Assembly (NCBI GenBank): GCA_051453625.1
Contig: JBOZIK010000001.1
Location: 12,371,463 to 12,435,462, forward strand
Direction of reading: 5' to 3'
DNA from: Welwitschia mirabilis
Lineage: Eukaryota
DNA length: 64,000 nucleotides
Shown in pieces: positions 2,491 to 43,078 of the stretch (positions are counted from its first letter, which is position 1; each line of letters begins with the position of its first letter). The translations under genes were made by a program, and so were the position numbers. The notes beneath the pieces are model-generated. The model ran no database searches. It worked only from the letters and a program-made list of their open reading frames with translations, and was not told the DNA's origin.

Positions 2491-3379
2491 TTCTTAAACT
2501 TATTTCTGAAGGGAGGGTCTTCTTATTGATGATTCCCATCAACTTTCAACTATATCTCTTTCACATGACATCACTTTTTTTATTCTTACTTTTTTCATTA
2601 TGATAAGTGACTAGAATTTGAAGGAATGCATCAAGAATTTGAGAGTTTTCTATTATTACCTTCAAATTCCTTCGACCAACTCCATAATGGATTCGACGAT
2701 TGTCATTAAGAACTCATCGAACCCGGTGTTGCAAAGAGTGACCACCACTTAAATATGACATTATGTTCCTCAATCATTACATTAAGCTTTTTCTTAATGA
2801 CCCTGGTCTCATTATTAATGATTGCATCACATGTCAGTTCCATGTCATCTAAACTACATTACCATCTGCAACATCACTTCTAAGTTAGCAGATTTTCTTA
2901 CTATTCACCTTACCAACATGTCATTCTATTCTCTAGTATTAGGAATGTTCTAAATAATTATAGTTACATCTATTTAGTTTCTAGTAAAAATTGTCATTTA
3001 GTCTTCATATGTGTAAAGTTAATACAATAGTAATTACAAGTATTTTTTCCTTTTTTAAATGGGAAATACATTAATAAATTTCACTCGTACCCTTGAATTT
3101 TACTTTAATCATGCTTGAGTGGTTTTTCGTATTTAAGCTCTTGAGTAATGGCGGAATACCTTCATGTAAAAATCTCAAGTATGGCCACAATTTTAATTTC
3201 AACATTCTCAAGAATGCCAAATTTAACATGGGAGCATAGTTGAATACACTTTTAATTTGTGAAAATGATGTTTTATATTCTTAGGAAGAAAAGTCTTACT
3301 TAGTAAGTTGTTTTCAAAGGTTTTTTATAAATAAATTTCTTTTTAAAGCACCTTTTTCCATACCTAACTATAATAATTA

Positions 3380-5674
3380 CAAAAATTTAACAAAATGTAG
3401 GATTATTTTTTCATTGAATTTAACACAAGTTCTTTTAGATTCCTGCTTAATTGAATTCAAACAGAGGATTGTCAAGCTAGGATGGTATGAATGGCTTACC
3501 CTAAATGACAGATTATCCTTAGAATTTATCTATGAATTTTACAAGAATTTAAGAAAAAATGATGCTAAAGGCATGCTATAAATAATGGTGAAAAATAAAA
3601 TAATAGTAATTACCTAAGAAAATATTAGAGAAATGTTGCATTTATCACTTAAAGAAAAATATATTGGTGATATTAGCAGAAAAGAAGACACAAATATAAG
3701 CATGAGTCTTCTAGGAAGGATGGCAGTGTAAGGAAGAATTTAAGTGAAAAAAGATACGGAATTTCAGTGAAAAAAGATACGGAATTTCAGTGAAAAAAGA
3801 GTTAAGTTTCCTGAGAATTATAGGGCACATGACCACTCAACTGAAACCGAGAATATCCTCTTCTGCCTCTTAGAGTCTACCATTGCTGCCTCCATCTAAT
3901 ATATTCCATGACCTAATCTAATTCACATTTTAAGAAGTCCTACCTTTCCATTTGCTTCAATATGATCAGTTCTCTAAAGCACTAGAGGAAGACAAGATGG
4001 ACAACCTTTGTAGTGCTTTGAACTTAATGAAAGATGAAATTCAAACCTATCTCGATAGAAAAGAGGAATTTTTAGCATTGAAAAGCTAAGTTGGTAATTT
4101 AAAAATTGAGATTGAATTCTTAAGACAAAGATTAGATCAAGAAAGGGAAAACAATGGAAAGCTATGCTGTAAAATCACTAACAAGGAGGAAAAAATTTAG
4201 CTCTTCTATGCTTTCAAAGATATGAGCAAAAAATTACAAAGAGCTTATAAATACATTGTTAAACTAGAGACTTCTACTAAGGATAGGGAAGAATTAGAGA
4301 ATCTTCCAAGAGAAAGACCAGACATGTTAGTATCCTTATTATAGAATTTAGCTTCAAGAAAGAAATATAATGCTAAATATATAGAGTATCAACAAACCTT
4401 CATTACATTTATGCATAATGAAGGGCTTGACCCCTGAACAAGGAATATTTATACAAAATCTACGTAGACCTATAGGTGATGAATGAAAAATTCATGAAGA
4501 TTCATGCAGAAGCTCAACAATATAAAAATAAATGGCTTAAAGCCTAGAATTATTTAGTATACTATCACTCCCTTTTAGATGTAAATAAGAAAGTCATGGA
4601 TCACATGATGGAAGAAAAAATAAGGCTCTTAAGAATTAGATGGGAGAGGAAAGCTCTTCTGATCAGCCTCTACAAGATTCCTTAATAAAACAAATATCTT
4701 CAAAAATAAAAGAGAAAATCAGAAGAATAGTAAATTCAATTCAGGGCATTTCCTTAACTTCTTTAACTCTGACTGCTGAGATTAAGAACAAAATAAACTT
4801 AAGTATTATTAATGCTTTAAAAGAATCTTATGTAGAGTTAAAGAAGAACATCAAAATAATAAGTTCTAAAGCTACCTAACTTATTATTCAGAATTTGGAA
4901 AAAAAGAATATGATACTGCTCCATGAGCTTTACCTTATGGAAGTAAAGTTGGATAAAAGAATTAGGTTTAGGCATGAAGAATTAACTGATTTACACAACC
5001 TTGACTAGTACCCCCAATAATTATATGACTTCATTAATAAATTTAAAGAATATTTAAAAAGTATTATTTATAAAACTTCTAGGAAATAATCAAATTTAAG
5101 CAAGAATTCAAAAATTTTTTGAATAACACTGCAATAAAATTTTATAAGATACTAGAAAAATATGAGTCTGATGTAAAAGGTTTTGTAGTGTCCTCTTAGG
5201 ATTTTTAATAGTTATATTCTTTTAGAGATCAAATTATATAGAATATGACTATGCTGGGAGGCACTTTTATCAATATTTTTTCAAAACTATAAAATAAAAA
5301 TTCTTCCAAAACATATATAGTCCCCTTTGGAAAAACTTCTAGAATAGAACTACAAGTTGAGGCAACTTTAGAGCCTGAACGTGTACCTAAAAGTCCCTGA
5401 AAAAAATCCTTCTAGCTCCGAAAAGAAAGAGAAAAAAAGTAAAGTAGCCAAAAGCTCCTCCATGAGGCAAAGGCAACGATAGAAACTTAGCTACTCTGGA
5501 GCAGATAGACACAGATACCATAGATATAAGTCATTCTACTCTTTAGAAGGCACATAGGAAAGTTTAGCTACCTTGAAACTGGAAAAATAATTTGTCCAAT
5601 TAGCCAAGAAAATGGAGGAATCAAAATCCAGTGAGGAGCACCCTTTTGTTTTCAAAAGGAGAAAAGGAAAATGA
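3380..5674 (+). pseudogene. Accessory ORF-B of element D (sense, 'env-like' position): plant-transposon-protein-like N-terminal domain, coiled-coil region, basic C-terminus; many stops
   Basis: LIEFKQRIVKLGWYEWLTLNDRLSLEFIYEFYKNL (about 3445-3550) matches track ORF 12529-12744. FITFMHNEG and the C-terminal QLAKKMEESKS are shared with the element C copy. Confidence 0.75.
3744..3800. repeat. Perfect 23-bp tandem repeat, 2.5 copies (GTGAAAAAAGATACGGAATTTCA)
   Basis: Read directly from the sequence. Confidence 0.9.
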
Positions 5675-5678
5675 TGAG

Positions 5679-5707
5679 TCTCTCTCTTCCTCTCCCTCTC
5701 TCTCTCT

Positions 5708-5744
<37 letters not shown>
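5679..5744. repeat. Interrupted (CT)n microsatellite
   Basis: Read directly. It explains the ERERER stretch in track ORF 5536-5865. Confidence 0.95.
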
Positions 5745-5747
<3 letters not shown>

Positions 5748-5797
5748 GTATATATTTATTTTCTAAGGGACTAATAAAACCTTGAGCTTGGGGGAAT

Positions 5798-7362
5798 TGA
5801 TAATGATTAATTATGATGTAAACTTTACTTATTAATGAAATGTTTTCATTTTTATAATTATGCATTTTAAAGAATAATAAATGTTTTTAAGTAAATGTAC
5901 TTACTAATCAATAGGTTAGTTAGTTAGTATGTTGGTAAGTTAGTGTATATATTTTATTATTTAGTTACAAGTACAGAATGCCATTTGGCATGAAGGTGAG
6001 AGAGAAGGCTAAGATGGTGAAAAAGTAGTAACAACCTCAATTATAAACCTATACCTAAGGAGAAAATNNNNNNNNNNNNNNNNNNNNNNNNNNNNNNNNN
6101 NNNNNNNNNNNNNNNNNNNNNNNNNNNNNNNNNNNNNNNNNNNNNNNNNNNNNNNNNNNNNNNNNNNNNNNNNNNNNNNNNNNNNNNNNNNNNNNNNNNN
6201 NNNNNNNNNNNNNNNNNNNNNNNNNNNNNNNNNNNNNNNNNNNNNNNNNNNNNNNNNNNNNNNNNNNNNNNNNNNNNNNNNNNNNNNNNNNNNNNNNNNN
6301 NNNNNNNNNNNNNNNNNNNNNNNNNNNNNNNNNNNNNNNNNNNNNNNNNNNNNNNNNNNNNNNNNNNNNNNNNNNNNNNNNNNNNNNNNNNNNNNNNNNN
6401 NNNNNNNNNNNNNNNNNNNNNNNNNNNNNNNNNNNNNNNNNNNNNNNNNNNNNNNNNNNNNNNNNNNNNNNNNNNNNNNNNNNNNNNNNNNNNNNNNNNN
6501 NNNNNNNNNNNNNNNNNNNNNNNNNNNNNNNNNNNNNNNNNNNNNNNNNNNNNNNNNNNNNNNNNNNNNNNNNNNNNNNNNNNNNNNNNNNNNNNNNNNN
6601 NNNNNNNNNNNNNNNNNNNNNNNNNNNNNNNNNNNNNNNNNNNNNNNNNNNNNNNNNNNNNNNNNNNNNNNNNNNNNNNNNGAAGGCTAAGATGGTGAAA
6701 AAGTAGTAACAACCTTAATTATAAACCTATACCTAAGGAGAAAATAAAGGAAACAAAAAAATAGAGAGAGGTATAAGAAAGGGATCACCATAAAAGGTCA
6801 AAATATTTTTGGCAAAAGGCTTTAGGAATAGATTCAATAAGAATGTCAAGAAGGGATCTCTGGCCATTTTGTAAAGGGTGTAGCAGCATCTTCAATACTT
6901 TAAAGTGTTACTTGCAAAGGAAAACACAAGCCTTAGTGCATCTTTGTGTAACATTTGGTATTTATATTAAGCTAAAAAGCTACATTTTGAGTATCATTTT
7001 ATGCATGTTCTATCACTTAAAAAAGTAATACTATTTTTATTTACTCCTTTTTGTGCAGCTGAACATAAACCAAAATAATTAATAATACTTAGAAATAAGT
7101 ATTATTTAGTATTTCATCAAATTTATATCATATTCTACTAATTTCTTTATTTCTTCCTACTTTAGTATATGTACATAACAACTTAGCGATAATAAAGTGA
7201 CTTGACTAGTTTAAGTAACTTCATCATGATATTATCATGGTGATGCATTTTGAATAAATGGTTAAATCTCAACTAGTTCTCTAGTAAGCCTTTGATGATT
7301 TTTATTTAAGATGTGAGCTTAGTTTAGGTTAGCAATAGCATAGTTTCTGCATTTTTTCAACA
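5798..7362 (+). repeat. 3' LTR of element D (TGAT...AACA; includes N-gap 6068-6681)
   Basis: Preceded by PPT-like GCTTGGGGGAAT. Distantly similar to the reverse complement of the element C LTRs (e.g. TTAGyATGTTrGTA, CAAGTACA, TAGCATAGTTT near the end). Confidence 0.7.
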
Positions 7363-7687
7363 CTGTTCTCTATTATTTTGTAATATTTTTTGCATTTATT
7401 TCACCATATAAGCACCCATAACATAAGCAAGGTGAGGAGGTATTATTATTATTTGTACTTATTTTTACAATGATAGATTTACTCAATTTTGCTTAAATTT
7501 TGAAAATTAAATTTTCTAGGATACTTTTCCTTTAGCTTATGATTTTTTTTATATTTGTCTAATTTATGCTCTAAATTATTTGTAGTCTACGCGAAAGTAA
7601 AAAAAAGTAATGGACGAATTGAATAAAACTCAAAATGAAAATAAGAAAGTGTAAAAATTATAATCAAATAAAGCCATCTTCATATAA

Positions 7688-7979
7688 TGTTAAATTTTTA
7701 GATAAGTTAGGAAGGAACAAATTATAACTAGATTTCATACATTTTATATGGAATAATACAATATATAACTTGTACAAAAAGATATAACCCTTCATGAAGC
7801 AGATTTTGAATAGTTGTGATGCTTTATTTATATTAATTAACTAATTTTTTACATAAATAAATAAATAAATAAATAAATAAATATTACTAGTTTGTTAAAT
7901 TATAATAAAATACATTTAGTTAAGAGATATGAAATACATTATGTATTATGATTTATTGTCTAACCTATTTCATCTAACA
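7688..7979 (-). repeat. Probable short 3' LTR of copia element G (contains a (TAAA)n tract at 7853-7883)
   Basis: On the minus strand, PPT TTAAGGAAGAA then TGTTAGATG follows RNase H directly. A candidate end is AAATTTAACA at 7688. The partner LTR is not visible, so the left edge is tentative. Confidence 0.55.
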
Positions 7980-7989
7980 TTCTTCCTTA

Positions 7990-8958
7990 AACTTCTAGGT
8001 CTTTCTCTTTGATTTGTAAGTCTTTCATGAACTATTAAAATTTATTTTCTTTAATTGACTTCATAAGTATAGCTGCTACCTGCCATTGGATGTTGCTATA
8101 GTTTAGATGGATGAAATCTTTTAACTCCTTAATGTAATGAAACTTAAGTTGAACACCCTTCATCCTTTTGTGAATTATCTGGTTCTTCACTAGTTTTATT
8201 ATGTTTTAACTATGACAATGGATGGAAATAGGAGTTCATGCCTTTCATGAAGATTGCTTAATATTTGATGAATTCATTTAAATTTGTAACATAACATTAT
8301 TGCTATAATACATTCTAATTTGATGGAGGGAAGTGCAGTTGTCTTCTATTTCTACTTAACCATGAAATAGTATTTCCATGAAGTTAAGTAATATAATTTA
8401 TAGTTGATCCACTATCTTCAGCATCTACCTAATATAAATCTATGTAACCAACTAAACTTTCTTTACTTTTACTAAAGATTATGCTATGTTTCATCATTCT
8501 AGCTAAGTACTTCAATATATTGATCACCAACTTCATGTGTGTTTTTTCCTAAAGAATGCATGATTTTGGTGAGTTTATTAATAGAAAGCATAATATTTAG
8601 CCTTGTATTCATCAAATATATCATCTTGCATATTATCTTTTAATACTTCATGGGATTAATTTTTTTTTGACTACTTTATTAGGATTTATATATGTACTTG
8701 GCCCTATAGGATTATTTCATTGTTAATAGTTCTTCAACTATTATTAATAAAGTATTTTATTAGTATGTTTTAATGTTTCATTGTTTTGTAATATTTGAAA
8801 TCCTTAAAAAACAATAGATAAAAAAAGAACTTAACAGCTCCAAGATTTAATATTTTAAATTTTTAACTAAGGGCATTTCTAACTTCCCTAATCTCTTTTT
8901 CACACTCACTTATTAATATTATATCATCAACATAAAGTAATAGTATGACAAAGGTTAG
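7990..8958 (-). pseudogene. Ty1/copia element G: RT C-terminal half and RNase H remnant
   Basis: Minus-strand LTFVILLLYVDDIILIS (YVDD catalytic motif, about 8910-8958) and KGVQLKFHYIKEL...QVAAILMK (decayed KHIDIRYHFIRE...ADILTK). Confidence 0.9.
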
Positions 8959-9900
8959 TGTTTAACAAAATATGCATAAGCATTACAAAACTATGCACTA
9001 AGATTTTAGAAGTGTAAAACTACTAACTTAAAAACTAGCTTTAATCATTTATTTAACAAGAAATCAAAGGATTCCTAAAAAGCTACTTAATATAGTTAGA
9101 TCTCTAACCAACGTAATTGAAATTGCATTACCAAGATTAAGTCTTGATAAAGGTCAACTTGAATAACTTAGGTTGAAGATTGATACATTTCAACTATGTA
9201 CATGATAAACATTATTAAGCAGAGAAATAAAAAGCATCTAAGATAAATATATTACTAGAACAACACTTATTTCTAAGTAGTTCTAATTATCCTAGTCTAT
9301 GTTTGGTTGCATATATAGGAACAAGAAAAAGTAAACACTAATTTTTTAAGAAATTTTAAAGTAGAACAACATAAAGGATAACTTTATAGTTTTATACTAA
9401 TTTCAATGCTGTAAGGCAATAATTATATAAAAGATAATTGATGAAAATCAATGTTTTCTTTATAGGTAGTGCTAGAATTGGGAAATATACTTGTAACACA
9501 TTTTTAGGGATGCACTAGCTCCTTAAGGTTATTGCCATGAAAGATCTTAGTAAAGCATTAATTATAGTTGCATTTCCTTACTAAAAGATTCCCTTTGCCA
9601 TTGGCCTCTTCTCCTTATACCCTTCTCCCTAGTTTCTCATTAGCTTGTTCTTTTTATTTCTTCTCTAGTATAGCTATGTGTGTTAGGGTATTCTTAAATT
9701 TTAGCTCATCCTTTCTACTATTCATCCTTACATAAATTGGAATTTGTACTTGCAATCGCTATTAATAATAATATATGCAATTCTAACTACTAACATGCTA
9801 ACATAATATTACTAACTAAATAAAATACTAAGTATATTAACTTTTAGCATTAAAACATTTTAACATATAACAAAAACATTCAGAGAATTTATGATCATCA
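8959..9900 (-). repeat. 3' LTR of element C
   Basis: TG...CA termini (TGATGATCAT...TAAACA on minus). Alignable end to end with 22189-23080. Confidence 0.9.
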
Positions 9901-10009
9901 GTTTCCCACATGTTGAATCTTTTATTAGTCCCTTTATCTTTAAATAAAATAAAAAGAAATAAAGAAAAGAAAATAAAACAACTTTACATAAATATATACA
10001 ATATAAAAG

Positions 10010-12800
10010 TGTAATTTTTAGTACTTTCCTATGATTTAGATTCTATCATTTCCCTAGTTAATTGGGCCAAATTCTTTCCTACTTGATTTTAGCCAAGAAC
10101 TTTCTTTATTCCTTTATTAGAGTCAGATCATTTACCTCATGGTTTCTAATTTTTGGTTGAGGATCCTCTTTCTTTACATCTATCACTTGATGTAGCTCTA
10201 ATCTACACTGGTTCCTTCCTTTTTCTCTTAGAAGTAGAAGGATCCTTAGGAACAAGAAACTATTCTAGCACTATTTCATTCCTTGTACTATCTTCCAAGT
10301 TTGCTCAATTAGGATAGGATAAACAATGATGTTATTTACCTCCTTCATTTTATTAAAAATATCTACTAAAGTGTCCCTCAATAAATTCATATTATTTATA
10401 ACTCAATATCTGAGTAGATAAGATTGTTGTAGCTTTTAGGATGATATTGAAAATGATTTTACATACATGCTATAAGTGCTAGAAAGGGGTCTACCTCCTA
10501 ATTATATAGATAGGGAGAACGATACATCTGCTCTACATTCTTTTATTACTTTATAAAATTGGGTAGATGTGTTACTTGTAAGGCTATGAGCTTATTCTAT
10601 AAATAATCCAAGAACCTTTTATTTAAATCTACTCTTTAATTTATTCAACTTTTTACTACTAGTTTTAAAATCTCTCTACATATATTCATCAATCCTCTAG
10701 AAGTCTTCTAAATTACATTGTCTAATTGTTCTTAAAGTTTATCTATAAAATGATATAACTTCTAGGAGTAATAGTCTAGACATTGGAACACGGATATTTC
10801 TAGTGTCTAAATATTAATCTTTTCCCTACTATGACCTTTATGGTTCATAATTCATGCAATAACCCCAAGTTTTATTTTTGTAAATTTTTAATTATTAACT
10901 ATGTTGATTCCAAAGATATTAAATCTAATGTTATTTCTTAGATTTGTAAAGGATCTCTCAATAAATTCTTTTATCTATTTTTCTACTTCTGAAACTAATG
11001 TCTAGTGCTTATTTATTTTAAATTCTTTATCTTCTTAAGAAATTATTTAATATGGATAGAAAATTGCCATCCAATTCATGACTATTAGGATTTCATCAAA
11101 ATGATCCCTTATTAAACTTACCAGTTCTTGAACCTCATTCTTAACCTATAATAAAATTGACTCTAATGTGGAGTCTTTAAGAGCAGAAGTAGAAATTAAT
11201 TTTTCTATAGGAATAGTCCCTTTTAATCTACTCTTGAAAACTTGATTCTCTTATAGAATCCATTCAACGGTTCTCTTATTACCATTTAACATTGCTTCAT
11301 AGGAGTTGTTCAGGTTCAAGAACTTTATTCACCTTTGTTTATAATTATGGAAATCGCTTGAGTCTTTATATACTTTTAATTCATTTCTTATATATTCGTG
11401 TATATGTTCTTTAAATGTTCTATGTTTAGATGAATATGTCCTTCATTATGCATAAATGTAATAAATTTGTTTAATGTACAATATACTCAACATCATATTT
11501 CTTGGATGTGGTCATGTTCTACAGTAGAGAGACCAATACATCTTTCTTATTCATTCATAAAGCTTGAGGAGCATTCCTTTCATCTAAAGCTATTTCTAGC
11601 TTTGCTTTTTATTCATATGCCATTTTCAATTTCAAATTGGCCTCCTTATAAGCATATAAAAAGTGAACTCTTTTAGTTTGCTAGTAATATTCTACTAAAA
11701 TTTATTACTTCTTTCTTTTTCTTAATTCAATTCAAATCCCAAAAATTCATTTCCAATTTTTAAACATGAATTCTAATTTTTTAACTTTGATATATCATCC
11801 TTTATCTTGCATCTCATTCTTAAAGAGTTCAAAATACTACAAAGACTATTACTCTTATCCTCTTCCAAGGTCTTGGAAAATGATTATGATTAAGAAGAAT
11901 ATATGCAAAAGAGCTATTATATAGTGAATTATATTGGATCTGATTCTTTCACTCTTATAGCTATTTGAAGTAACCTTATGCCTTGAGGGATAAAAGAAGT
12001 TTCACTAGGCCTTATATGGGAGAATCCCTATAATGAACTCTGTTCTTGCATTAATTTCAAAATACTTAACTCTTTTACTTCAAATAAAGATTACATAGTT
12101 AGCTTTATGCAAGGCCTATTTACTTTAGGATTTATTACCATTTTTTCAAGAGTTCTTATTACTAAGAAAGGGAATCCTATTTTAACAACATCAAAAACTT
12201 TGAATTTTTTCATCTTGATGGTGTACCTTATCAAATCTTGAAAATTTTCTTCACCTATATTAACATTTTCCTACTTTGTTAAGTTTCTAATAGCTTTTGC
12301 TAAATACAAACTAGTTAAACTTATTTCTTTTTATTTATTAAGAATAGGGACTAGGTTACTCACCACAATTCTAGTAATTATAAATAGTTTTGACTCTACA
12401 TTTTTCTCAAACTCTACCTTGCCCTCTTTATTTGAAAGTTTTCATAGAAAAATCATAATTAACTCAGTATCTTCCTTCCCAGTAAAGCTTTTAATGGACC
12501 CTTCCTCTCTTAGAAATTGAAGGATATTTCAGATATCCTCTTGGAAGAAAACCACAATTATACTATTAATCATTGCAATCACTATCTTCTCCTCCTCAAT
12601 GTAATCCATATTTTTATAGAATTTAAAAATAGTACTTGTACTATACTTATCAGTTAGGGCGAGCCACTTCCACCACCCTAATTTAATAATTCTTTGTTTA
12701 AACTTTGACAAATAAGGGTTAACAACTAGTTTCTCAAAACTCACAGAAGAGATTAACTTACATTCATAAATAGATAAGTTTCCTAAAGTTAGATATATTC
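10010..12800 (-). pseudogene. Accessory ORF-B of element C (sense to the element), about 900 codons when intact
   Basis: Track ORF 12529-12744 (KFKQRIIKLGWWKWLAL...FKFYKNM), FPFLVIRTLEKM, FITFMHNEG, PSTSKRKRKEP, NLAQLTREMIESKS. Homologous to 3380-5674(+). Confidence 0.75.
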
Positions 12801-13190
12801 TTGTTTGAATTTAAATTAAAATAAGATAACCTATAACTTTAATTTTTGTGAATTAATTCATGCAAATAAATAATAATACACTTAAGTGATTCATATTTTA
12901 AAGTAAATTGATATTAGAAATACTTATAATAATTCAACATTTTCTTAAAATTCATAAAAGAGATTATCTCATGTTTAGAAATAAATAACTTTCTTAAAGT
13001 TTGATAGATCCTTATTTGAATTTAAATTCAAATAAGATAAACTCTATCTTCAATTTTTATGAATTCATTCATTCAAATGAATAACAATATACTTGAGTGA
13101 ATTCATATTTCAAAGTACATTCATGTTAAAAATGACGTGTAATGATTCAACGTTTTTTGAGTTTTATGAAATATGAAATTATTGTTATTG
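12768..13190. repeat. Diverged tandem duplication of about 210 bp at the 5' end of ORF-B
   Basis: AAATAGATAAGTTTCCTAAAGTTAGATAT... (12768) versus AAATAAATAACTTTCTTAAAGTTTGATAG... (about 12979), collinear for about 190 bp. Confidence 0.8.
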
Positions 13191-15135
13191 TAAGATTTAA
13201 TATTTTAAGCAAACATAGATTTAAAAATGTCAAATACAAATATAAATATTGAAAGATAATAACAACAAAATTTACTTGCTTTTCTCTAATCCTACCTCCT
13301 AGTAGAAGTTTGTATGATTTTAAACACTATGAAAACGTAAAAGGACTAGAAGATAAAGTTTTTACTAGAGAGAATAACTATTTCCCTAGTTACTATGGAA
13401 GATGGTTTTAGAGAGAATTCTAACTTGAAATGAAAATTTTTTACAATCCAAAGTGAAAATAACTTATTGCATTTTACTTCTTAAAAAATATAAACCTTTA
13501 CATGCTAATTAATTTCTACCTTACTTCATAATTAGTTCTTCCATTATCATATGTAGAAGTAATATTTGATGACTGGATTGTCATTGAGATGTCTTTATGA
13601 ACTACTAACCTATAGGAAGAAATGTAGTGGAGTCTAACATGATAGGTTGAAAATATAAATAAGATATCATGATGTATTTAAGGTTGTTTACATGATAAAG
13701 GATGATTGGTTGAAAGTCAAAAGACATATAGTAGTCGAAGCGAGTCTTCAAGATGTGAATTAAGAGGAGATGAAAAGACACATAAATCATATTTAAGTTG
13801 TCAAGCTCATACAATAGTTGGGAGTTTTAGTTAAAGAATTTTCAAATGGGATTTTCAAATTCATATGCTATGTTTGTGTTTAAGATTTGAAGACACTCTT
13901 CAAGAACTCTAGGATTCTTGTAGGGGATCTTCAAAATTTTGAATCACTTATATTATTTATTGTAAGTAATGAGAGGTAAAATAGAAGAAGCAATATTAAA
14001 GATGAAAGTCAAATAAGTCTATAAAAAGTTGAATCCCCATTCAACAAACTTTGTATGCCTTATCAAAGATATTGAATTGAACTAAGTTTTAATTTAAAAA
14101 TGATATTTTTAGTTAATGTAAGTATTTAATCCAACAAATCTAATTTGACTGATAGATTTTAATGAATGCAAAGGACTTTTAAGTTCAACCTAAAATAAGA
14201 AATCTTCAAGGAATCTAAAGGAATTATCTAAATATTATCAACGTCATTTAAGTTTTAGTTGAGAGTTTCAACTTTGTTTTAACAGATTAATCAACTTGAT
14301 TCATGATTAAATTTGATATGTTTAGTTTATTTTAAATAGATTAATAAACTAGTCAACTTGATTTATAACTTTATGTTTAGATAAATTGCAATATTACAAT
14401 TGCACTCACTTAAGTTATAGTTTAAATTTTTAGATTTAAATCAAGGACTTAATTAGTGTAGCAATTTTTTTTTAAAGGACATTTGAGGCAAATAATATGC
14501 AGTACACAATGCTCCATTGTGCTAGGGCTTATGAAAACTTATGATGAGAGATATCAAGTGCAATGTTTCATCAGTTCGTTTGCCTCTTTAGGGATCTAAA
14601 TGTTGGATCTGGGGTCCATAGGTCCCTTGACCTTATCATTAGAACAAACCATTTTGGATAGTATAATAAATTATTATAATATTATTTTATTTTAATTTTA
14701 GGTAATAGTGAACCAAATTTAATAACCTAGAATTTGTCTTTACTTAAAGCTTAAAAAGTTACTCAAATGATCTCATAATTAATCTGATGCTTTAGATTTA
14801 GATTAAGCACTTAATCAATTTAGTGGTAGTTAATTAATGTCCAATCTAAAGAGAAACTATTAAAGCATACCAGGAATCCAATGAATCAAATTTGCTAATA
14901 GGCATTCTACTTAGTTTAATAATTGTTCTTTCATCATGATATTCTAACTTGATTTCTTGACACATGTAAAATCATAAATTCTTAATTAGTAAAACCCATC
15001 AAAGAACTAAAATTAAACCATTACTATATAAAGAATATAACTATTCATCAAAATATTATATTAATCTTTGCTGAAACCTTAAAAAGTTATTCTTCACAAT
15101 CTTTAAAAAAGTTATTTATCTCTCTTCAGGTTATT

Positions 15136-15740
15136 ATGGTATTACACTACACTAACATTTCCATCCCTCCTCCTCCTCCTATTGCAATCTCTAGCATAAA
15201 GAAGATTAGGTAATGCTATTTAAATTTTTATTAACTTAGATCAATATGTGTATAAATTGTGTAGAACTTATCTTCCCATAAATTGCTATTAAGATGGATA
15301 ATGTGATTAAATCCTATTTATATTCAAGTTATAAATTAGTGCTAAGGTTTTGGACATACTACAATTTTTCATCATGAAGGATAAAAAATATATATTTTAA
15401 AATGGAATCATTCCACTCTGCTTTAGGACTATGATCCACAACTTCTACTTGAGGCTAATAATTGAGGAATTATTTTACTTAATTAAGAAGATTAAACTTA
15501 TAGTGTTTTCTTAGTAAAAGATTTGATCAACTTCAAGGAAAAAATCCTGTCTAAGTTTAAATAAAGAGCATATGAAAAAGACCATATGGGCTTCTAAGAG
15601 GTATAATAACTGTTAAAATGATCATCCAATTAAAGTACAAATGATTGTTAAAAATCTGAGTACTACCTTCCTCTTTAAGATCCTTAGAGACTAGGAGGTC
15701 CAATAAGAAGAATAAATTTACTGTATTTTTTATGAGATAT
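15136..15740 (+). pseudogene. Accessory ORF-A of element C (antisense to the element)
   Basis: INMCINCVELIFP; SAKVLDILQFFIMKDKKYIF*NGIIPLCFRTMIHNFYLRL; DQLQGKNP; TIWASKRY...HP; TRRSNKKNKFT. Each block matches the 832-1504(-) translation in the same order. Confidence 0.75.
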
Positions 15741-16569
15741 CTTTCTATTACTTCTTATGCTTTCATATTTAAAAACCCTATGCTTTTAATTTTTGATAGT
15801 GCCTTGATGCTTTGTGTAACAAAATATTTTCTTAATAAAAATTTGATATTTTTGAATTTTATCAAAGAATTTCATTTATATATAGATGATCATATTAATT
15901 TATTTAAAGAAAATTATTTATTGCTAATTTAATATACCACCTTCAAATTCATTTAGAAAACGACAAGAAATCAAGAAGTTTCCCTTGTTGCTTTAATGGA
16001 AAATTAATTGCTATACACTAATTTTAGGTTAATGCTCTTAATCCACATTCCATAATACTTTAAAGTAAAACCTTTTTATCTTTCTTTTACATATACATAT
16101 TATTTTTGTATTATGCCATATTGACTTAGCTGACATTAGTCCATTGTGATTATGTATAGTCTTAGTCACTAGCTATGTCTTAGATGATACCTAGGATGCC
16201 ACTATTTCTTAAACCATTTCTTATTACAAAACTCAACTTTTACTCATAATAAGAAGAGTGAAATCACTATCAGAGGAGTAAGGATCTATAGGATTAAATC
16301 TAGATCATGGCCAAGTAACCTCCTATTGGAGTTCTTACAACTATCATATTGTCCTAATAAAGAACCTTCTTAGGAATATTTGGCTTCATGGACTTACGAT
16401 AGAACATTTTTATTTTGATTTTTTAAATTAAATATCATAATATATACATACATTAATATTGATGTAATGCTATTAAATTTCTTAACAAATGATGAAATGC
16501 ACAACTTCATACTAATGAGTTATTAAGTTGAATTCAATTATTTCCAACTAATCTGAAATTTATCCTTAG

Positions 16570-19500
16570 CAATTTAAAAAATTAACAAATGAAATAAACT
16601 TTAAACGTTTGGTATATTTTATTATGATATATAAAGTGGGAGTATCCTCTCCACTTTATAAGAATTTCCTAAGTATTCTAGTAAAGTCTTAAAGTCATTA
16701 TACATTCTTAACCTTTACTCACAAAGTTGATATGTCACTTTTTCATTAGGGTTAAATATGTTTATGGCTCAGGTTCTTATAATTTTATTTATTTTATAAG
16801 ATTGAAGCTAATTCTATTCATGATTTTATTTTAAATAAAGATTTTTAGAATCATAAAAAATTACTGAGTCTCATATCTTAAAATTGGTTTTTTTAATTTT
16901 ATTATAATGAAATATTTTTGTTTTCCCTTGGATTAACTCTTTTCTTAAGAGAGATTTTATTCTATTTTCATCTAAAATATTTATATATTAAATACATTCT
17001 TCTTCATCTCTATCTAAATTGCAGTTTAATTCCTTAGCTAAAGTTTTTATTTTAAAATGAATTGATACTATTTTACTTTCTTATAAATTAACTCGTATAA
17101 TGTGAATCCAATACTATTTTTTTAGGTTACTCTATAAGTCACACAAATCTTCATTTAGTTTTTTATCCCACTCTATTTTATTTATATTTATAGTTTTTGT
17201 AAATATTTTGTTTAATTATTTGTTTGTTGCTATAGCTTAACCATTGGATTCAGGATGCTAAGTAGTAGATAGTTCATGATGAGCTCCATACTTGAGTAAG
17301 ACTTTACTAAAAATCTTACTTGTAAAATGGATTATTCTCTTACAGATGAAATTCCTTAGTATTTTTCAAATTTGTAAAAAATATTTTTGAGAGAAACATC
17401 AATAATAGTTTGAAAATAATAATAAAAGATAATCGTAGCTTTATCCACTTAGTTAAGTAATCAACATGGACTAGAATATGTATCTTTATATGTGATGAAG
17501 AGTTAATAGATCGAATAAAATCAATATCATACACATTAAAGAATTTAATTAATTAAATTCATTGCTATCATATTTTTAATTTCTAAGTAAACTATCTTTT
17601 CTTTCAACACTTATCACAACTTTGAACATAGGTAAATGAGTCCTTAAATATTATTGGCTAGTAGTACTATATATTAAGAATTTTCATTCTTGATCTTCTT
17701 GTACCATAATTTCCTCTAAATTTTTCATCATGTGCTTATTTAATAATCTGTTTTTGCAAATCTTCTTCCACACACCTTCTAATAATGTGATCTTTACACT
17801 ATCTGAATAAAGTCTTATCATGTCATATTTAATTTTTGACTTCTCTTAATATTTTTAATCTTTTATAGCAATTAATGTAAGATGATAAATTTTTAGAGAC
17901 TATGGAATTAGTTACATCAGCCTACTAGTAATTTATTTAAACTTTCAAAATATGCTCATTGGGAAATTCAGTTTTTACATTTATTTATTCTTATTGATTG
18001 CAAAACTCTAGTCTTAAAAGATGATGATCTACTACATTTTTTGTTTCTTTTCCATCGATAATTTTTAGGTTGAATTCTTGTATTAATAATATCCATCTCA
18101 TAATTATTCAATTTACTTTCTTTTTATTCATTAGAAATATGATAGCACTAGGATCAGTGTATACTCTACCTTCATATCTTATAATAGAGTACCTAAATTT
18201 TTCTAATGCCATTACAATTAATAATAATTCTTTTTTAATTATAATATCATTATGTTAAGCTAAATTTAAATTTTTAATAATATAAGAAATGACATACGGT
18301 CTACTCTCATCATCTTTTTGCATTAAATAGCTTTCATAGCATGATTAGATGCATAAATCATAACGTTTAATGGTTTTGACTAGTTAGGCCCTTGTAAGAT
18401 AAGTTCTTTCATTCCTTAACCTTTTAAGGTTTGAAATAGGATCAGGAATCTTAACCACTTCACTTAATGTTATAAGACAAAATATTATCCACCTTACCTA
18501 CCACTGCAAGCCAAAGAAATCTAGTTGCTTCAACCTTAAATTACTCTTATAAAAGGGCTAAGCCCCTTTATTGTCTTCATTTATTCATGCTTGGTGATAG
18601 CTATACTTTAGAGTAAAGGTGATATTTTTCCATGCCATGCTAAGCTCCCTTTGGAAGTGGATTATTCTTAAGGATAGCCTGATGAATCTCTATCAAATGT
18701 ATTCTTCTATCATGGATGTAAGAGATCTACTTTATTTTAATGAAATTGTAGTTTCGTTTTTAATTTAAGTTATAATTCACATTGTACTTTAAATGCATAA
18801 ACTAAACTATTTATTTGTCAACTATCTATGTTTTTGAGTGAATCCTTTTGCTTATAATTTTGTTTAGTAGTTCATATATGTTTGATGATCTTTATGCATT
18901 AATTTTTTAACTTTTGATACTTACATTTGGACTATAATAGATAAAGTTTCATAAAGATCTCACCACTACTTATGTGATGAATGAGATTATATCACCATTA
19001 TTTACAACTTAGTAACTTGGCATCTTTTAAGATTAATTAAGAAATTTCACTATATTTAGAAAGAAACTTCATTTGTTAGATGATTAATGGTAGTTCTTAA
19101 AGAGTTAGTTTAATTTGTTCCTTTTCCATTTTAAGTTTTTCTTAATACTCCTTCAACTTATAGTTTACATATTTTTTATAAATATTTGTATGTTTACTTA
19201 TATTTTTGGCTATTTCCTTTGTCCCTGAGAAAAGAACAATAACTAGGTCCTCATATAGTTTTATTATAAGCTTGGTTAGGGATATTATACCTATTAAGTT
19301 CATCTAAAAAACTATGATCTTGGTGTCCTAGTATCCTTTATAAGATTTAACTACCAAGGATAAAAGAATCATAAGTAGCAACATTCAATATTCTAAAATT
19401 TATGCAAAATATCAATTTATTTCCCTTTTTGGATACCACAGTAATAGGCTGAGTTACTCTTGATCTAATATAGAATAAATGAATTCTACATCTTAAATTT

Positions 19501-22075
19501 TAGTTATTTTTTGCTTATTTAATTTTTGCATATGTGGGTTAAATATATTTTAGGTTGTCTATTTTATTTAGTTGAAGGATTAAAATAAATCCCATTCTAA
19601 AAAATCCCTAGATCTATCCCTTTAATATTAGTATGGTCTAAAGCAAAGCTTCTTTTCTTTTAACTAATATTCTCTTAAGTTTCTTCTTTAAAGAATGAAT
19701 TAAATTACTATTAATGATTAAGGGTTTATTACAAGCTAATTCTATATATTCTAAGCCCTCTTTAAGTGGAGATTCTTTATTTATTAAGGTTTTAAAGTAT
19801 CTTATTTATATTTTTCATCATTTTTTTATTTAAATACTATATGAGGTTCTTAATCAAAATAGCATTAGCCCTAGCTTCAAAATTAGATATTATTTTCTCT
19901 ATGATAGTAGCATCTAATAATTTGATCTTATTATTAAGTTATTTTAAGCTCATTTTCATTACCCTTTTTATACAATAGATGGTGTCATTAATAGTAATCA
20001 TCTATGATCTTCCTAACATAATTGCATGTGTGTCTTCTTTAGTTTTCATTACTAAAGAGTCAATTAAATAAATGAACCCTTAAAGCTTAATAGATACATC
20101 CTTAAGACTCCTTTAGGTGTAACTGTCAAATCATTTGTTGAATAGACTTTTTCTTGATAAGGTGTTAGTTTTGATTTTTTTAATTTTTCATAAGTTTTGT
20201 AAGCCATCACATTAATACTAGCTCCTAGATCTATTAAAGCTTCTAGCTTTACCTTATTATTTACTTTTATTCTATTATGAGAATTCTTGGAATATTTTAT
20301 TTTTCATGTTATTTATTATAAATAACTTGCATAGAGGTATAAGAAAGTTGATCTTTCTTAATCATTTCTGTTTATTCTTCTTTGATTTTCTTTATATTCT
20401 ATTTCTTAGATTACATGTTCTTCATTTATCTCCACTATGTGTGCACATCCTTTAACATCTTTGTAAGAGTTAATGAGATTATGGTATTCAATAAAGCTTT
20501 GGCTAAATACTCCAAGTTCTTTTTAACTTTAACTTGCTTAATTTATCTAATTATCATTGAAAAGGGTAAAGATTACAATTACTTATCTACTATTTGTTCA
20601 ATTTATATATTAGTTTATTCTTGTATAGACAGGCTACTTGAGTATTTTTTCTTTTAGGAACCCATTCTATTGTCATAGGTTTTCTTGAGATAATATAGCT
20701 TTACTAGTGGCTTCTGTTGTGTAGGGATTTTTCCTTCTTTTTTTTCCTTACTTCTTGTTTATTTCTATTATTTTCTTAATCTTTATCCTCCAATTCCTAT
20801 AGTAATCAAAATGGTATTATCTAATAGAGATTACATATCTTTGCAAAGGTTTTTCTAGTTTCCTTTCCATTTTTTATTTTAGTAAGGTATGATTTCTTTT
20901 TTTCCTGGGGCTGATTTTCTAAATTTAAATCTAATATATTTATATCTAATTACTAAACAAATTCTTAGATCCAAGGATATTCTATTCCCTCATGATCATC
21001 TTCTTTATAATGTTCACAAATAGAACTTTCTTTCCCTTACAAATGTTGTATAGCTAATTAATTGAACTTTCTATCATAATATTAGTCACCTTTTTGGCTA
21101 CCTCTTCGACAAGATTGATATTCTTAGAGATATAAATACTATCTTTTGTTTTAGATATTGAAATCACTTAGTTTTTGCTTTTTTCATTTTCTTATCCCCT
21201 TCATTGTCTTATATTACGAAATTTACTGATTGGTTTACATGTTTCTTGTAGATTCTTAGTCTTAATACTTTCCTTAAATAATAATCCTAACTTCTTTAAT
21301 GTTTGGTTTTGTAGTTCTCTAAGAAAGGTTTTAATACTTTCTTAGGTTGAGATTTTATGACAAGAACCTTTAGTTAGTAATATGTTATATCTATCCATGA
21401 ATTCATCAAATCTTTTATTATCTTTCTACTTAATGTTCAAGATTTATTCCCTTAAGTCTTCAACTACTCTCATGGTATAAAATTTATCTTAGACAATATT
21501 TTTACAAACTTCCAATGAGGTGGCATGATTCAGATTTTTATGATATCATAATTGATATTCCTCCTTAAGAGAAATAGGAAAACATCTTAGTTAATTAGAC
21601 TTTAAGAGTAGATAATTTTATTTTTAAAAGGAATTAAATAAGCTTAAATAAAGTGAAGGCTCTTTAGAATTCTTTCCTTAAAAAGTGGGTATAGAGTTGA
21701 TATTTGTATACCTTACTTTCTTAGGAAATTTTAGAGCATTAAGGTTAATGGAGCTTAAATATTCTAGCTAATGAGTATCATAATTTAAGATCTAGAATCT
21801 CCATCATATTTCTAATAATAACTTGCTGAAAACATATTTTACTATGAGCTTCTTGATTATTATAATTCTTTTATCTTACAATATTCTTCTTGAATAAAAG
21901 GTGCTTGAGAAGAGTAAATAGTCTATGTTCTATCTCACTCATAAGTTAAAAAATTTCTCCTTAATAACCTATTCTAGAGTGATTTCATCAGCTTCTAAGT
22001 CTCCTTCTATCTCTAGTTTAATTTTTCTTCCTATCTAATTCTATAGATCAAATTCTTCGAATATTTAACATACCT
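16570..22075 (-). pseudogene. gag-pol of element C (retrotransposon gag, aspartic protease, partly deleted RT, RNase H, integrase)
   Basis: Gag LRCFPISL (about 21570). Protease ALIDLGASINVM (about 20205-20245). RNase H MALEKFR...VYTDPSAI...RWILLIQEFNL (18050-18215). Integrase DFI...ILVHVDYLTKW (track ORF 17340-17534) and PESNG. Confidence 0.92.
18393..19006 (+). mobile_element. Solo-LTR-like insertion (about 614 bp) between RT and RNase H of element C
   Basis: TGTAA...TTACA inverted termini, TATAAAAG at about 18548, interrupts pol, shares motifs with 47290-47490. TSD not recognisable. Confidence 0.65.
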
Positions 22076-22156
22076 ATTTATATTATCTCTCCATTTCTCT
22101 TGGCTACCTTTTAAATGATAGACTTCTTCATCTTTACTCGTTAGCTTTAAAAGTGT

Positions 22157-22172
22157 CCTCCTTTTGATGTCA
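22157..22172 (-). promoter_or_regulatory. Decayed primer-binding site of element C, probably tRNA-Asn type
   Basis: Minus-strand TGACATCAAAAGGAGG versus the recalled plant tRNA-Asn-type PBS TGGCGCTAGAAGGAGG. All 5 mismatches are transitions. It lies 16 bp from the LTR. Confidence 0.5.
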
Positions 22173-22188
22173 AAATAATAAAAGTTCT

Positions 22189-23080
22189 TGTTTAATAAAA
22201 ATATTCACAAGTATTATATAACTATGCACTAAATTACTAGAAATGTAAAATTGCTAATCTAAAATCTATGTTTAAGATATATTCTGTAAAACTAGTTAAG
22301 ATTGTTAGATCTCCCACTAACTTCATTTGAATTGCATTTCTAAGATGAACTTTTGATAAAGGCTGGCTTGAATAATTTAGATTAAAGATTAATATATTTC
22401 TAATATGTATGTATTAAACATCATTAAAAGGAAATAATAGAACACATTTAAGATCCTATTTCTAAGCATTAATAATTATCCTAACATATGTTCAGTTGCA
22501 TACATAGGAGTAAGAAAAACTAAATATTGCTTTTTCAAGGAATGTTAAAATAGAATAACATAAAGTTTAACTTTTAAGTTATCCATTAATTTCAATGCTA
22601 TAATACAATAATTATATAAGAGATAACTAATGAAAATTAGTTATTCCAGAACTAAATCTAGGAAATATGCCTATGATGCCTTTTCAAGAATGTACTAGAT
22701 CTTTAAGATTACTACCTTGGTGAATTTCTAGTAAAGTACCATTTCTAGTTTCCTTTCCTTCCTAAAATATGCTCTTTTTCTTTAAGCTTTTATCCTTATA
22801 TCCTTTTCCCCTAATTCCTTATTAGTTAGATCCTTTTTTGTATCCTCTAGAATAGTTACATTTGTTAGGTTATTCCTAAATTTAGCTTATCCTTTTTATC
22901 CTTTGTTCTTATGCTAAGTGGAATTTGTATTTACAATGGTTATTAATAATAATGTACATAATGATAACTACTAAAATACTAATATAATATTACTAACTAA
23001 ATAAAATACTAAGTATATTAATGTTAGCATTAAAACTTGTTAACATATAATGAAAATATTTATAGAATTTATGCTTATCA
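22189..23080 (-). repeat. 5' LTR of element C
   Basis: TGATAAGCAT...TAAACA on minus. Partner of 8959-9900. Confidence 0.9.
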
Positions 23081-26000
23081 TAGTATTACTGCTCTCATAT
23101 ACTTACTAAGTGATTTTATGTAGAGGTTCATATCTACAAAGGATTTCTAGCAATCCAGGTTCTTGAGAAATGCATCAATCTTATTAAATCATACTTGAGG
23201 ATGTTGTTTTAGGCAATACAATGAATTTTTATCTTATAGGATTTTGTTTTATGAAATTTGATTTCAAAGACTTTAAGTTGAGTTTTGTAGATTTATTTTC
23301 TAGAATCTTCATTTAGGAATGTGGATTTGATGTTAAGCTTGAATATATTCTAGTTATATTGAACAAATAAATAAAGTATGATTTGTATTATATAAATTTT
23401 TACTATGGATGCAAATGTTCCATTATAATTAATTCTTTATTTTTAAGTAAAACCTTTGATAATGAATCTTTTGTTGTACTTATTAATTATGCTATCTTAA
23501 TATTATTTGATATAAAACATCCATTTCATATTAATTGATTCCTTTATTTTTTAATGGTTTTAAGGTTTGATTCTTTGTGATATATTGTATTTCTTTTACA
23601 TATAATTTTTATAATATGTTTTCTATGGTTTTTTTTTTACATAAGCTAGCTCTTCATCAGTTGTCTCATTAACATTGGAAATAAATTCTTAACCATTTTA
23701 TGTGGTTTAATTTAAATTTTCTTTTATGAAGCTTCTCTTGTTCTCATGTGTTGAATCTCAAACTTGTTTACCAGATATGGTATTTTTATTTTATCATTTG
23801 GAATAGGGTTTTGATTATCACTTTCTTTTGTGAATAGAACAATTTTCTCTTCATCATCAACATGATTTATTACTCTGATGATTTGAGAATCTAATATTAA
23901 GCATTCATAATCTAGTTCATCTAAATTTTGGCTTGCATATTTATTAAGAAGTTTTACTCACTCTCCATTAATGAAAATTATGTCATCAAATGGTGTGAAC
24001 CAAATAGGTTATCATTTTTCCTTATTTCATTAAATATAATATCTTGGGTAATGACTATTATTTTAGAAGTTAAGTTCTATACTTAATAGGCATTATTCTT
24101 ATCAGACTAATCAACCACAAATAAAGTTCTTACTTCATTTTGTAGTTTGTTTTGTTGCTATGGAATGCTCATGAAACTCTTACTTCTAAAAGTTTAAAAG
24201 TGATTTTAAGACACCATCTTATTACATTATTTTTCTTTTGAAATATTACCATGTAAAGATTTATTAGAAACTCTATCTTAAAGATATACAATTGTTATAA
24301 TAGATTATATCCATAGAAATGATGAAATTCATGTCTTATAGAACATGATACTGGTCATTTTCATGATGGTTCTATTTTTGCTCTTCGTTATTCCATTAAG
24401 CTGAGTTGTGAAGGGTGAAGTTACTTTGTTTTGAAATTTAACCTTTTTAAGTTTCTAATAAAACTAATTTAATACACTTTCTTCTCCTCCATCTATTCTA
24501 AGAATTGTCATTTGTAATTTTGTATGTTTTTCCATCAATGCATGAAATACTCTAAAAGCATAAGGATTTCAGAATTATTTCATAGGAAGTATATGAAACA
24601 TATTCTATTATAGTCATTAATGAAAGTGAGCAAATAATTTTGACCTTTTAGGAATGAAACAAAAAATGGTCCACATGAATAACCATGGATTAATTCAAGT
24701 TTGTTGTCTACTTTTTTCTTTCTATTTTTTTAAAATGACTTAAGATGTAATTTTCCCATTTGACAAGCTTCATAGAGTAGTTTCTTAGTTTTATATTTTA
24801 AAACTTCCCCATGGACTTGATGTAGTTTGTTGAAAATTATAAAATTTGTATGCTATACTTTTTGATGCTAAAGCATTGATTTGTCTATTTGGATAGTTGA
24901 AAAAGCTTTATGATTAATGTTTTATAACCTATAACAAAAATATTCTATTATACTAAAATGCTTTAATGTGATTTTTCTCTTTTTCTATAACATGAGGCAT
25001 CTTTTTTTTTTTGTTGCCAAATTTAACTTTGTATCCATCTTGAAGTACAAATTAAACTAATAGTAAATTTATTTTAAAGTTTAAAATATAAGGATAATTC
25101 ATTAGAATAAGAAAGGATAGATACACAATTCCTACTTAACTCACTCTCAATTTTGCTTCATCACCAATGACTATGTGTTTCATGATGCTGCTCGGGATTA
25201 GCTCAAGATTCATGTAGCATTTCTTATTACTAGTCATGTAACTTAATTTTCTTAAGTTCATAAATCATGTTCCATTATTGCTTATAGAGATTAATGATAT
25301 TTCTTATGGATAAACCATATCATCATATAGGATTGTAATTTTTAGAATTTTTATTCTTACTCATTATTCTTATTTTTCTTATTCTACTTATTCTTCTTTT
25401 ATGGGTTATCAGAATTTTTGAAACTAATTTTTAAAGTGATAAAAATTATTATATTATAAAACTTAAAAAATCGGATTTCTTTTTTTATTTATTTTATTTC
25501 TTAGATTTAGTAATAATCAAGTAGTAATAACCATGATTATTTCATATTCTCTTCCTTTTATTTTTTATTGATTTGATGGATATCTGCATTAGCTATTTAA
25601 ATAAACCAGATTTATTAGCATGTTTAATGCTTTAAGAAATGTGTTAAACTTTAGGAGTAGTGCTACAAGTAATATGATATTAATCATCTATTCATTCGTC
25701 ATAGCACTTTATTCTTTAATTCATGATTTTAAGTTAATGATTTTTATCTTCAAATCAGTGAAATCTTCGAGATCTCTAAGCTTACTCATAAAAAGTTCAT
25801 AATTCAATGATTTTTTTTATGATTTACTTTTAAGTTACAAGGTATTCTTTAGAAAGTTTTAAAGTTATTCAAGATTCCTAATATTATGAATTAAAGGATG
25901 AACATTTTCGCTGACATTCATGACTAGAATAAGTCTAGTTAAACATGCATCTTCATTCTTCTTTATAGAAAACTTTCATCCAAGTAATTATCAATTCCTT

Positions 26001-43020: not shown

Positions 43021-43064
43021 NNNNNNNNNNNNNNNNNNNNNNNNNNNNNNNNNNNNNNNNNNNT

Positions 43065-43076: not shown

Positions 43077-43078
43077 TT

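Follow-up and report, generated by a model that had tools for sequence, protein, structure and literature searches.

The window analysed here is a stretch of 64,000 nucleotides (nt) of DNA from Welwitschia mirabilis (assembly GCA_051453625.1, contig JBOZIK010000001.1, positions 12,371,463 to 12,435,462), and its left part holds two decayed long terminal repeat (LTR) retrotransposons, which we call element C and element D. We conclude, with a probability of roughly two in three, that the regions separating pol from the 3' LTR of C and D are decayed remains of Athila-branch Ty3/gypsy elements (non-chromovirus OTA), and that each of them once carried two extra genes, one in the sense direction, ORF-B, and one antisense to the element, ORF-A (ORF, open reading frame). 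C and D would be related but distinct elements which were inserted anciently and are now dead, and ORF-A would have been kept by purifying selection while the lineages of C and D diverged. The evidence base for both relics consists of these two decayed copies.

The window is very AT-rich, with a GC content of about 25%, and contains 31 runs of N. CpG is depleted (observed/expected 0.15), and in positions 1-23100 there is one stop per approximately 11-12 codons in every frame. Decay of the repeat-induced point mutation (RIP) type, a possibility raised by the 25% GC, was ruled out by a TpA/ApT ratio of 0.95 and the CpG ratio just given. Neither cassette contains a stop-free frame of at least 100 amino acids (aa); positions 1-20000 have seven such frames, one at 5536-5886 and six that span an N run. 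Open stretches reach at most 98 aa in ORF-B of D, 93 aa in ORF-B of C and 80 aa in ORF-A of D.

A six-frame tblastn comparison of D with C gives collinear blocks which have opposite orientations in the window, C being on the minus strand and D on the plus strand, and tblastn finds no other matches to these blocks within the window. ORF-A is antisense to pol; D 1440->832 and C 15216->15682 match over 133 aa with 28% identity (E ~2e-7). ORF-B has the same orientation as pol; D 3384-3761 and C 12774-12394 match over 127 aa with 31% identity (E 4e-18), and additional blocks extend to D 4975 and C 10803. At the DNA level, segments with 58-61% identity pair D 124-884 with C 16424-15688, D 1131-1499 with C 15512-15159, D 3910-5138 with C 11940-10640, and D 5171-5628 with C 10464-10033. 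Although blastn finds no DNA match for D 3384-3761, where ORF-B starts, this segment gives the strongest protein match. Inside both ORFs the mismatches are codon-periodic, and this periodicity is absent from the flanking conserved DNA. The similarity of C and D thus exceeds both chance and homology at the DNA level.

An earlier note on this DNA, made from the letters alone, had described two ORFs pointing away from each other across a spacer of about 2 kb, with amino-acid blocks kept despite DNA divergence. This head-to-head layout and its coordinates are borne out by the collinear blocks: the two relics diverge outward, the spacer between their mapped ends is longer in C (2.4 kb) than in D (1.9 kb), and protein similarity reaches E 4e-18 where blastn is silent. 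The remark that the LTRs of C and D barely align is consistent with our comparison, in which no LTR-to-LTR match was reported and the collinear alignment ends at the LTR starts. What the note called ORFs are however relics only, with no stop-free frame of at least 100 aa and with frame shifts in both copies.

The ORF-A relic of D occupies 832-1420 on the minus strand. It opens with a conserved Met and closes with a stop at 832-834, about 195 codons in all, and was delimited by stops, periodicity and codon usage. Its counterpart in C, at 15243-15746 on the plus strand and thus antisense to the element, was delimited by tblastn to D, by having the fewest stops and by codon usage. The gene would have started about 1.1 kb and ended about 0.5 kb downstream of pol. 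Over 223 codons of D the frame contains 7 stops, where the remaining five frames contain 13-25; the binomial p of this depletion is 6e-4 at the local stop frequency. C and D have in common a stop immediately upstream of the conserved Met of '...INMCI...'. When the mismatches between C and D are sorted by position modulo 3 they number 51/164, 89/169 and 43/167 (p 8.9e-5), and it is at the third codon position of the antisense frame that they are in excess (0.53 against 0.31 and 0.26). The periodicity was obtained with four alignment settings (p 2e-4 to 6e-3). Sliding windows restrict the signal to approximately D 900-1500; of eleven 300-nt windows spanning D 124-1923 the strongest has p 7e-4, and codon periodicity was not found in the better conserved D 124-870 or in the tail D 650-831. 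Among the aligned codons no other frame is as poor in stops in either copy (5 and 6 in the antisense frame, 11-20 elsewhere). Amino-acid identity is highest in the antisense frame (0.34), the ratio of nonsynonymous to synonymous differences is lowest there (pN/pS 0.62, against 0.81-0.98), and all tblastn matches in D 913-1440 belong to it. ORF-A is a genuine coding relic.

First and second positions of ORF-A differ at rates of 0.31 and 0.26, which is what the non-coding control shows (0.31) and not far from the divergence of the LTRs (0.24), and therefore most of the amino-acid change in ORF-A is decay after insertion. Before insertion, selection on ORF-A was probably strong.

One could argue that ORF-A was never a gene of the element, the stretch being either cis-acting with periodicity by chance or a passive fragment of host or transposon origin captured by the common ancestor of C and D. 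Such transduced fragments are known in plant LTR elements (review PMC7264820), ORF-A has neither a homologue nor a domain, and the adjacent D 331-831, which is non-coding, is conserved better than ORF-A itself. We consider this unlikely. Chance would have to account for p 8.9e-5 over the whole of ORF-A and 7e-4 in the best window, and for a shortage of stops that affects one and the same frame in C and D; a passive fragment would have diverged evenly across codon positions after C and D separated, and transduced genes are usually sense-oriented (review PMC7264820). Deamination of GC-rich wobble sites as the cause of the periodicity was ruled out, since transversions alone are periodic (24, 50 and 23; p 0.001).

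It should be noted that periodicity cannot separate a frame from the opposite-strand frame which has the same wobble base. ORF-A might accordingly have been coded on the sense strand, in which case both extra ORFs of the element would be sense and an antisense gene would be absent. The mismatch periodicity is equal for the two wobble-sharing frames, the purine skew of the antisense strand over ORF-A is small (0.04-0.05), and at the N-terminus of ORF-B the shadow frame is as poor in stops as the true frame. Because periodicity leaves the strand undecided, a codon-usage score for true against shadow frames was built and trained on nine segments from ORF-B, RNase H and integrase; in leave-one-out trials it was correct for 9/9 of these known segments. 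For ORF-A of D it gives +14.8 in the antisense frame and -19.4 in the sense frame, and for three pieces of C it gives +1.5, +3.9 and +0.2 against -0.4, -2.6 and -0.8. The score is not an artefact of an A-rich sense strand, because at ORF-A it favours the opposite strand, and the purine skew itself reverses locally across ORF-A in both copies. The sense frame moreover has 11 and 12 stops where the antisense frame has 5 and 6, an amino-acid identity of 0.27 where the latter has 0.34, and a pN/pS of 0.82 compared with 0.62; it gives no tblastn match in D 913-1440, and the ratio of second- to first-position mismatches favours the antisense frame (0.83 against 1.21). We thus regard sense coding of ORF-A as improbable, and ORF-A was probably read on the antisense strand. 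As an antisense ORF in the 3' region (aORF-3R), it shows coding character in periodicity, stops, pN/pS, codon usage and skew, in two decayed copies.

The stretch between pol and ORF-A (331-831 in D; 15747-16239 in C, minus strand) is the best conserved part of the cassette. The C stretch has 67-69% identity to D 331-870, which is about the level expected from decay after insertion alone, and its mismatches are non-periodic (p 0.78-0.90). A purine-rich (AAAAG)n tract is located in it at D 433-508. The stretch may be a cis-acting element, for example an internal polypurine tract or an RNA-processing signal.

The ORF-B relic is located at 10560-12875 on the minus strand in C, as delimited by tblastn to D, by PF20167 and by codon periodicity, and at 3285-5200 on the plus strand in D, on the same kinds of evidence. 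In C a single frame covers 337 codons (12810->11800) with about 11 stops; in D the relic is frame-shifted and about 300 nt of the domain are missing. Among 24,736 Pfam families the only one matched in both copies is PF20167, Transposase_32. The match in C has E 0.003-0.006, covers 2-173 of the 177 profile positions and places the domain at about 12684-12142; the match in D has E 1e-4 to 1.9e-4, covers profile positions 2-58 and places the N-terminal part of the domain at about 3474-3659. Both are matches at relic level, below the 45-bit cut-off of the family. That the same single family is found, collinear, in two independently decayed copies is persuasive as to the probable identity of the domain. 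The region after it gives weak Pfam matches to coiled-coil families. Codon periodicity of ORF-B spans approximately D 3400-5200, with phase changes at the frame shifts of D, and reaches about C 10560. It is not found past D 5200, nor in the downstream D 5171-5628. ORF-B is predicted to have had about 640 codons, with a Transposase_32/ATHILA-ORF-1-type domain followed by a coiled-coil-like half. The suggestion of the earlier note that both ORFs were under selection holds for ORF-A, with a third-position excess at p 8.9e-5 and the lowest pN/pS (0.62) in the proposed frame, and for ORF-B, where the third-position excess in the middle part has p 5e-5 and pN/pS is 0.47, 0.38 and 0.67 by block, in each case the lowest of the six frames.

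The 98-aa open stretch of ORF-B was compared with the ESM Atlas and matched unnamed plant clusters at 0.92-0.93; a cluster at rank 30 (score 0.88), 24% of which is Transposase_32, can be taken as a lead only. A match of the ORF-B profile in the PDB (E 0.62) was rejected. A 23-bp unit repeated 2.8 times with 97% matches is found at 3736-3800 within ORF-B of D, and in C a 212-bp tandem duplication with 81% identity lies across the start of ORF-B, at 12730-13156. In DNA contigs, at 80% likeness, the coiled-coil-like middle of C ORF-B (11270-11743) has a summed depth of about 50 times single-copy, while the ORF-A bins have only about 4-6 times. Close relatives of parts of ORF-B seem to outnumber those of ORF-A in the genome.

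The assignment to the Athila branch is based on several features of C and D. Element C has two LTRs with a 5-bp target site duplication (TSD), and RNase H precedes integrase on one strand, as in Ty3/gypsy: both are in one minus-strand frame, the other five frames having no Pfam match. The RNase H remnant (RT_RNaseH, 18072-18335, minus strand) matches with E 1.6e-12 and 48 bits, which is over the cut-off, and RT_RNaseH_2 is matched as well (E 4.8e-5); the zinc-binding remnant of integrase (Integrase_H2C2, 17598-17768, minus strand) has E 3.7e-5 and 24.2 bits against a cut-off of 25.5. The core of the reverse transcriptase (RT) of C was not detected with Pfam. An additional archaeal-type RNase H is the defining feature of the Tat group; Pfam gave no RNase_H or RVT_3 match for one in C, where decay limits detection, and the mere 102 aa from the end of RNase H to the zinc domain of integrase would leave no room for it. 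According to PMC2844528, TTGGGG is the conserved polypurine core of Athila-like elements. This core adjoins the 3' LTR in D, where TTGGGGG occupies 5788-5794, 3 nt upstream of the TG of the LTR, and it is decayed to TGTGGGA in C. In the supplement of Neumann (2019), pfam03078 (ATHILA ORF-1) occurs in 167 elements, all of them Athila, with 166 hits in the 3' forward position (3'F), 1 in 3'R and 1 in 5'R; the extra-ORF row of Athila has a blank cell and a single value, 47, in its last column, which we read as 3'F. Two statements of the earlier note are thereby upheld: that the elements are Athila-like, for which the TTGGGG core, the 5-bp TSD, the sense ORF with Transposase_32 and the apparent lack of room for an extra RNase H all argue, and that a sense 3' ORF is typical of Athila, as the 166 3'F hits show. 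By domain and position ORF-B is this canonical 3' sense extra ORF, which is already known.

That the elements instead belong to the Tat group (Retand/Ogre type), ORF-A being a degenerate Transposase_28 or PMD gene, is very improbable: the 5.5-6.3 kb that separate pol from the 3' LTR in C and D fall in the range of 2.9-6.6 kb given for Retand, whose regions have antisense Transposase_28 ORFs and some sense ORFs (Vicient, 2025), and extra ORFs are in position 3'R in 86% and 3'F in 22% of Retand and 3'R in 60% of Ogre (Neumann 2019 supplement), but ORF-A has no Transposase_28 or PMD match at E <=10, the gap of 102 aa holds no RNase_H or RVT_3 match, the polypurine core is TTGGGG, and the sense ORF has an Athila-type domain, the Retand sense ORFs encoding no known domain according to Vicient (2025).

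Several observations weigh against our conclusion of an Athila-branch region with a sense and an antisense gene. ORF-A of C can be read only with two frame shifts and scores low for codon usage (+0.2 to +3.9). The shadow frame at the N-terminus of ORF-B, mentioned above, makes stop counts alone weak. No Pfam family was matched by either copy of ORF-A at E <=10, and this includes Transposase_28, PMD, SMC and DUF390, the domains known from antisense ORFs. When 1.84 billion representatives were searched exhaustively with phmmer, ORF-A had a sole match, in five short stretches of an internally repetitive protein of 349 aa, which we judged spurious; a PDB search with ORF-A found none, and a 75-aa stretch of it gave only helical-repeat families at noise level (0.82-0.85) in the ESM Atlas. 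It should be kept in mind that a decayed ORF-A query has little power, a comparable ORF-B query barely recovering Transposase_32. The PF20167 scores of ORF-B are 17-23 bits, far under the cut-off, and no homologues were found with the D piece, the 337 aa of C or, at E <=10, the two-row alignment, in a protein-index search which requires shared exact words of five residues and is weak evidence. A primer-binding site complementary to tRNA-Asp is found in 72% of Athila elements (Neumann 2019 supplement). The bases after the 5' LTR of C, a heavily decayed sequence, agree at 7/18 positions with a tRNA-Asp primer site; this site is too decayed to type.

Loci related to the cassette were sought by pattern as well. 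None of 258 pattern matches in a viral collection was kept, and one metagenome locus (1/271 pattern matches), on a contig of 57-62% GC and with 16 residues matched, was rejected as chance.

The earlier note had also proposed that the two genes formed a module, possibly co-regulated from a bidirectional internal promoter. This part finds no support. The best match between the spacers of C (~12811-15242) and D (~1421-3284) has 38.3 bits and is non-collinear, twenty shuffles giving up to 39.7 bits, so that the similarity of the spacers does not exceed that of the shuffled controls and is at noise level only; a shared bidirectional promoter is possible. Near the start of ORF-B (2400-3300 in D; 13200-14100 in C) both copies have a part of the spacer that is rich in purines on the antisense strand, and the copies cannot be aligned there. 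By analogy with known elements, separate expression of the two genes could be envisaged. ORF-B was most likely expressed through a spliced subgenomic RNA with the 5' LTR as its promoter, as the sense 3' ORF of Bagy-2 has an LTR promoter and a spliced RNA (review PMC7264820). ORF-A would have needed its own internal antisense promoter like the antisense genes of Grande and Retand; for gene23 of Grande an internal promoter of its own has been shown (review PMC7264820). The product of ORF-A may, by the same analogy, have been a small regulatory and possibly nuclear protein, and the conserved basic patch at its C-terminus is only a hint of a nuclear role.

In two raw-read RNA runs under the same species label, 20 and 11 reads fell on the 14.2 kb of the element; all were partial fits and none was on ORF-A or ORF-B. 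Silence at dead copies says nothing about the active family. The reads of run X13 at the cassette cover only 14612-14658 (47 nt) and continue on both sides into unlike, tRNA-like sequence; ARAGORN found no tRNA genes in the window. These reads probably reflect a short motif in common with an expressed locus elsewhere and not transcription of element C.

Element C is a full LTR retrotransposon at 8946-23080 on the minus strand, as defined by its LTR pair and a perfect 5-bp TSD, TACTA, at 8941-8945 (on the side of the 3' LTR) and 23081-23085. The 3' LTR (8946-9900, minus strand) is 955 bp long and has the ends TG...CA, which were inspected in the alignment of the blastn pair. The 5' LTR (22176-23080, minus strand) is 905 bp long, and its terminal CA is now TA. 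The pair has 76% identity, with a p-distance of 0.239 and a Kimura two-parameter (K2P) distance of 0.295 over 891 aligned sites. The insertion of element C is very old, because its LTRs are 23.9% different (K2P 0.295); at a rate in common use for plants, its age would presumably be about ten million years. The polypurine-tract remnant TGTGGGAAAC adjoins the 3' LTR at 9901-9910 on the minus strand and aligns with TTGGGGGAAT of D. The end of pol is placed at 16240-16424 on the minus strand by 74% identity to D 124-330 and a peptide match in the sense frame, and judged by its position it would be a remnant of the C-terminal part of integrase. The C locus is present in contigs of DNA runs under two species labels, with 0.84-0.87 of the sampled words. 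The highest summed contig depth in two DNA runs is found at the pol end (16010-16483), 1565 and 4267 against about 4-5 for single-copy sequence, and many contigs of the DNA runs stop at 16245 and 16282. A segment of approximately 40 nt in the integrase tail appears to be common to very many elements in the genome.

Element D is truncated by the start of the window and extends on the plus strand past 5798, as judged by homology to C. Its pol end is at 124-330 (plus strand, homologous to C 16424-16240), the remainder of pol being outside the window. The polypurine tract TTGGGGGAAT was read directly at 5788-5797 on the plus strand, adjoining the 3' LTR; a (TC)33 microsatellite is located just upstream of it, at 5679-5744. 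The 3' LTR starts with TGAT... in register with the LTR start of C and covers 5798-6067 on the plus strand before it is interrupted by an N run at 6068-6681.

The right part of the window has repeats of its own. Between 30400 and 63281 many N runs of 100 bases are bordered on both sides by the same 300-1500 bp with 90-94% identity, for example 30969-31394/31495-31927, 34668-35499/35700-36538, 49605-50396/50497-51285 and 59697-60833/60935-62069. Such a pattern suggests that allelic or repeat variants were scaffolded around gaps, and not that these are genuine tandem repeats. A separate repeat family with at least three copies of 62-82% identity is found in the right half, at 26685-28279, 33309-36538 and 43064-46292; it is unrelated to the cassette of C and D.

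What the extra ORFs of plant LTR retrotransposons do is still unknown (review PMC7264820). If intact relatives bear ORF-A out, antisense genes under selection would be present in the Athila branch too. Their sizes would be below the survey cut-offs of 250 codons (Neumann, 2019) and 600 bp (Vicient, 2025), and they may be under-counted. A more specific claim, that the Athila elements of this plant have an undescribed antisense gene of about 195 codons which was under selection, has no known domain, had its own promoter and stood head to head with a Transposase_32 ORF, is doubtful, and we put it forward as a tentative proposal only; in that case antisense accessory genes would characterise the Athila branch besides Tat (Retand, Ogre, Grande), and surveys would have overlooked them for their shortness. 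The combination of wobble-phase periodicity between two dead copies with a codon-usage score for true against shadow frames recovers both coding relics and their strand, and it may be reusable on other decayed repeats.

ORF-A joins a known class, that of the antisense accessory ORFs, for which reports from this lineage are rare; we found no description in the literature of an Athila antisense ORF of its size, older work on Athila extra ORFs not being covered. It resembles the aORF-3R of Tat elements (Retand ORF4 with Transposase_28, maize Grande gene23, rice RIRE2 and the PMD ORF of Ogre) in being antisense and located in the interval that separates pol from the 3' LTR, and some Retand elements, like C and D, also have sense ORFs in this region. 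It differs from them in its about 195 codons, in having no Transposase_28, PMD or SMC, and in residing in an element of Athila type that apparently lacks the extra RNase H. ORF-B in turn resembles the PMD-CC extra ORFs of Tat (Ustyantsev, 2015), where a domain associated with plant transposons is followed by a coiled coil; those ORFs have PMD instead of Transposase_32 and are mostly antisense or in the 5' position.

The pair as a whole can be compared with sunflower Athila 14. Its ORF(+) (PMC11728184) has 487 aa with PF20167 at 133-312 and is called related to pfam03078, and its ORF(-) has 70 aa with one predicted transmembrane helix. ORF-B has the same domain in the same position as this ORF(+), an Athila 3'F extra ORF, and differs from it in being a relic of about 640 codons with a coiled-coil-like C-terminal half and sub-threshold Pfam scores. 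The earlier note did not recognise the combination of the two ORFs as described. This overstates the novelty: ORF-B is standard, the pair of orientations is on record once, in sunflower Athila 14, and only the sequence family of ORF-A, in an Athila-type element, is unmatched in our searches. C and D are like sunflower Athila 14 in combining a small antisense ORF with a Transposase_32 ORF(+), and ORF-A differs from its ORF(-) in having about 195 codons against 70 aa.

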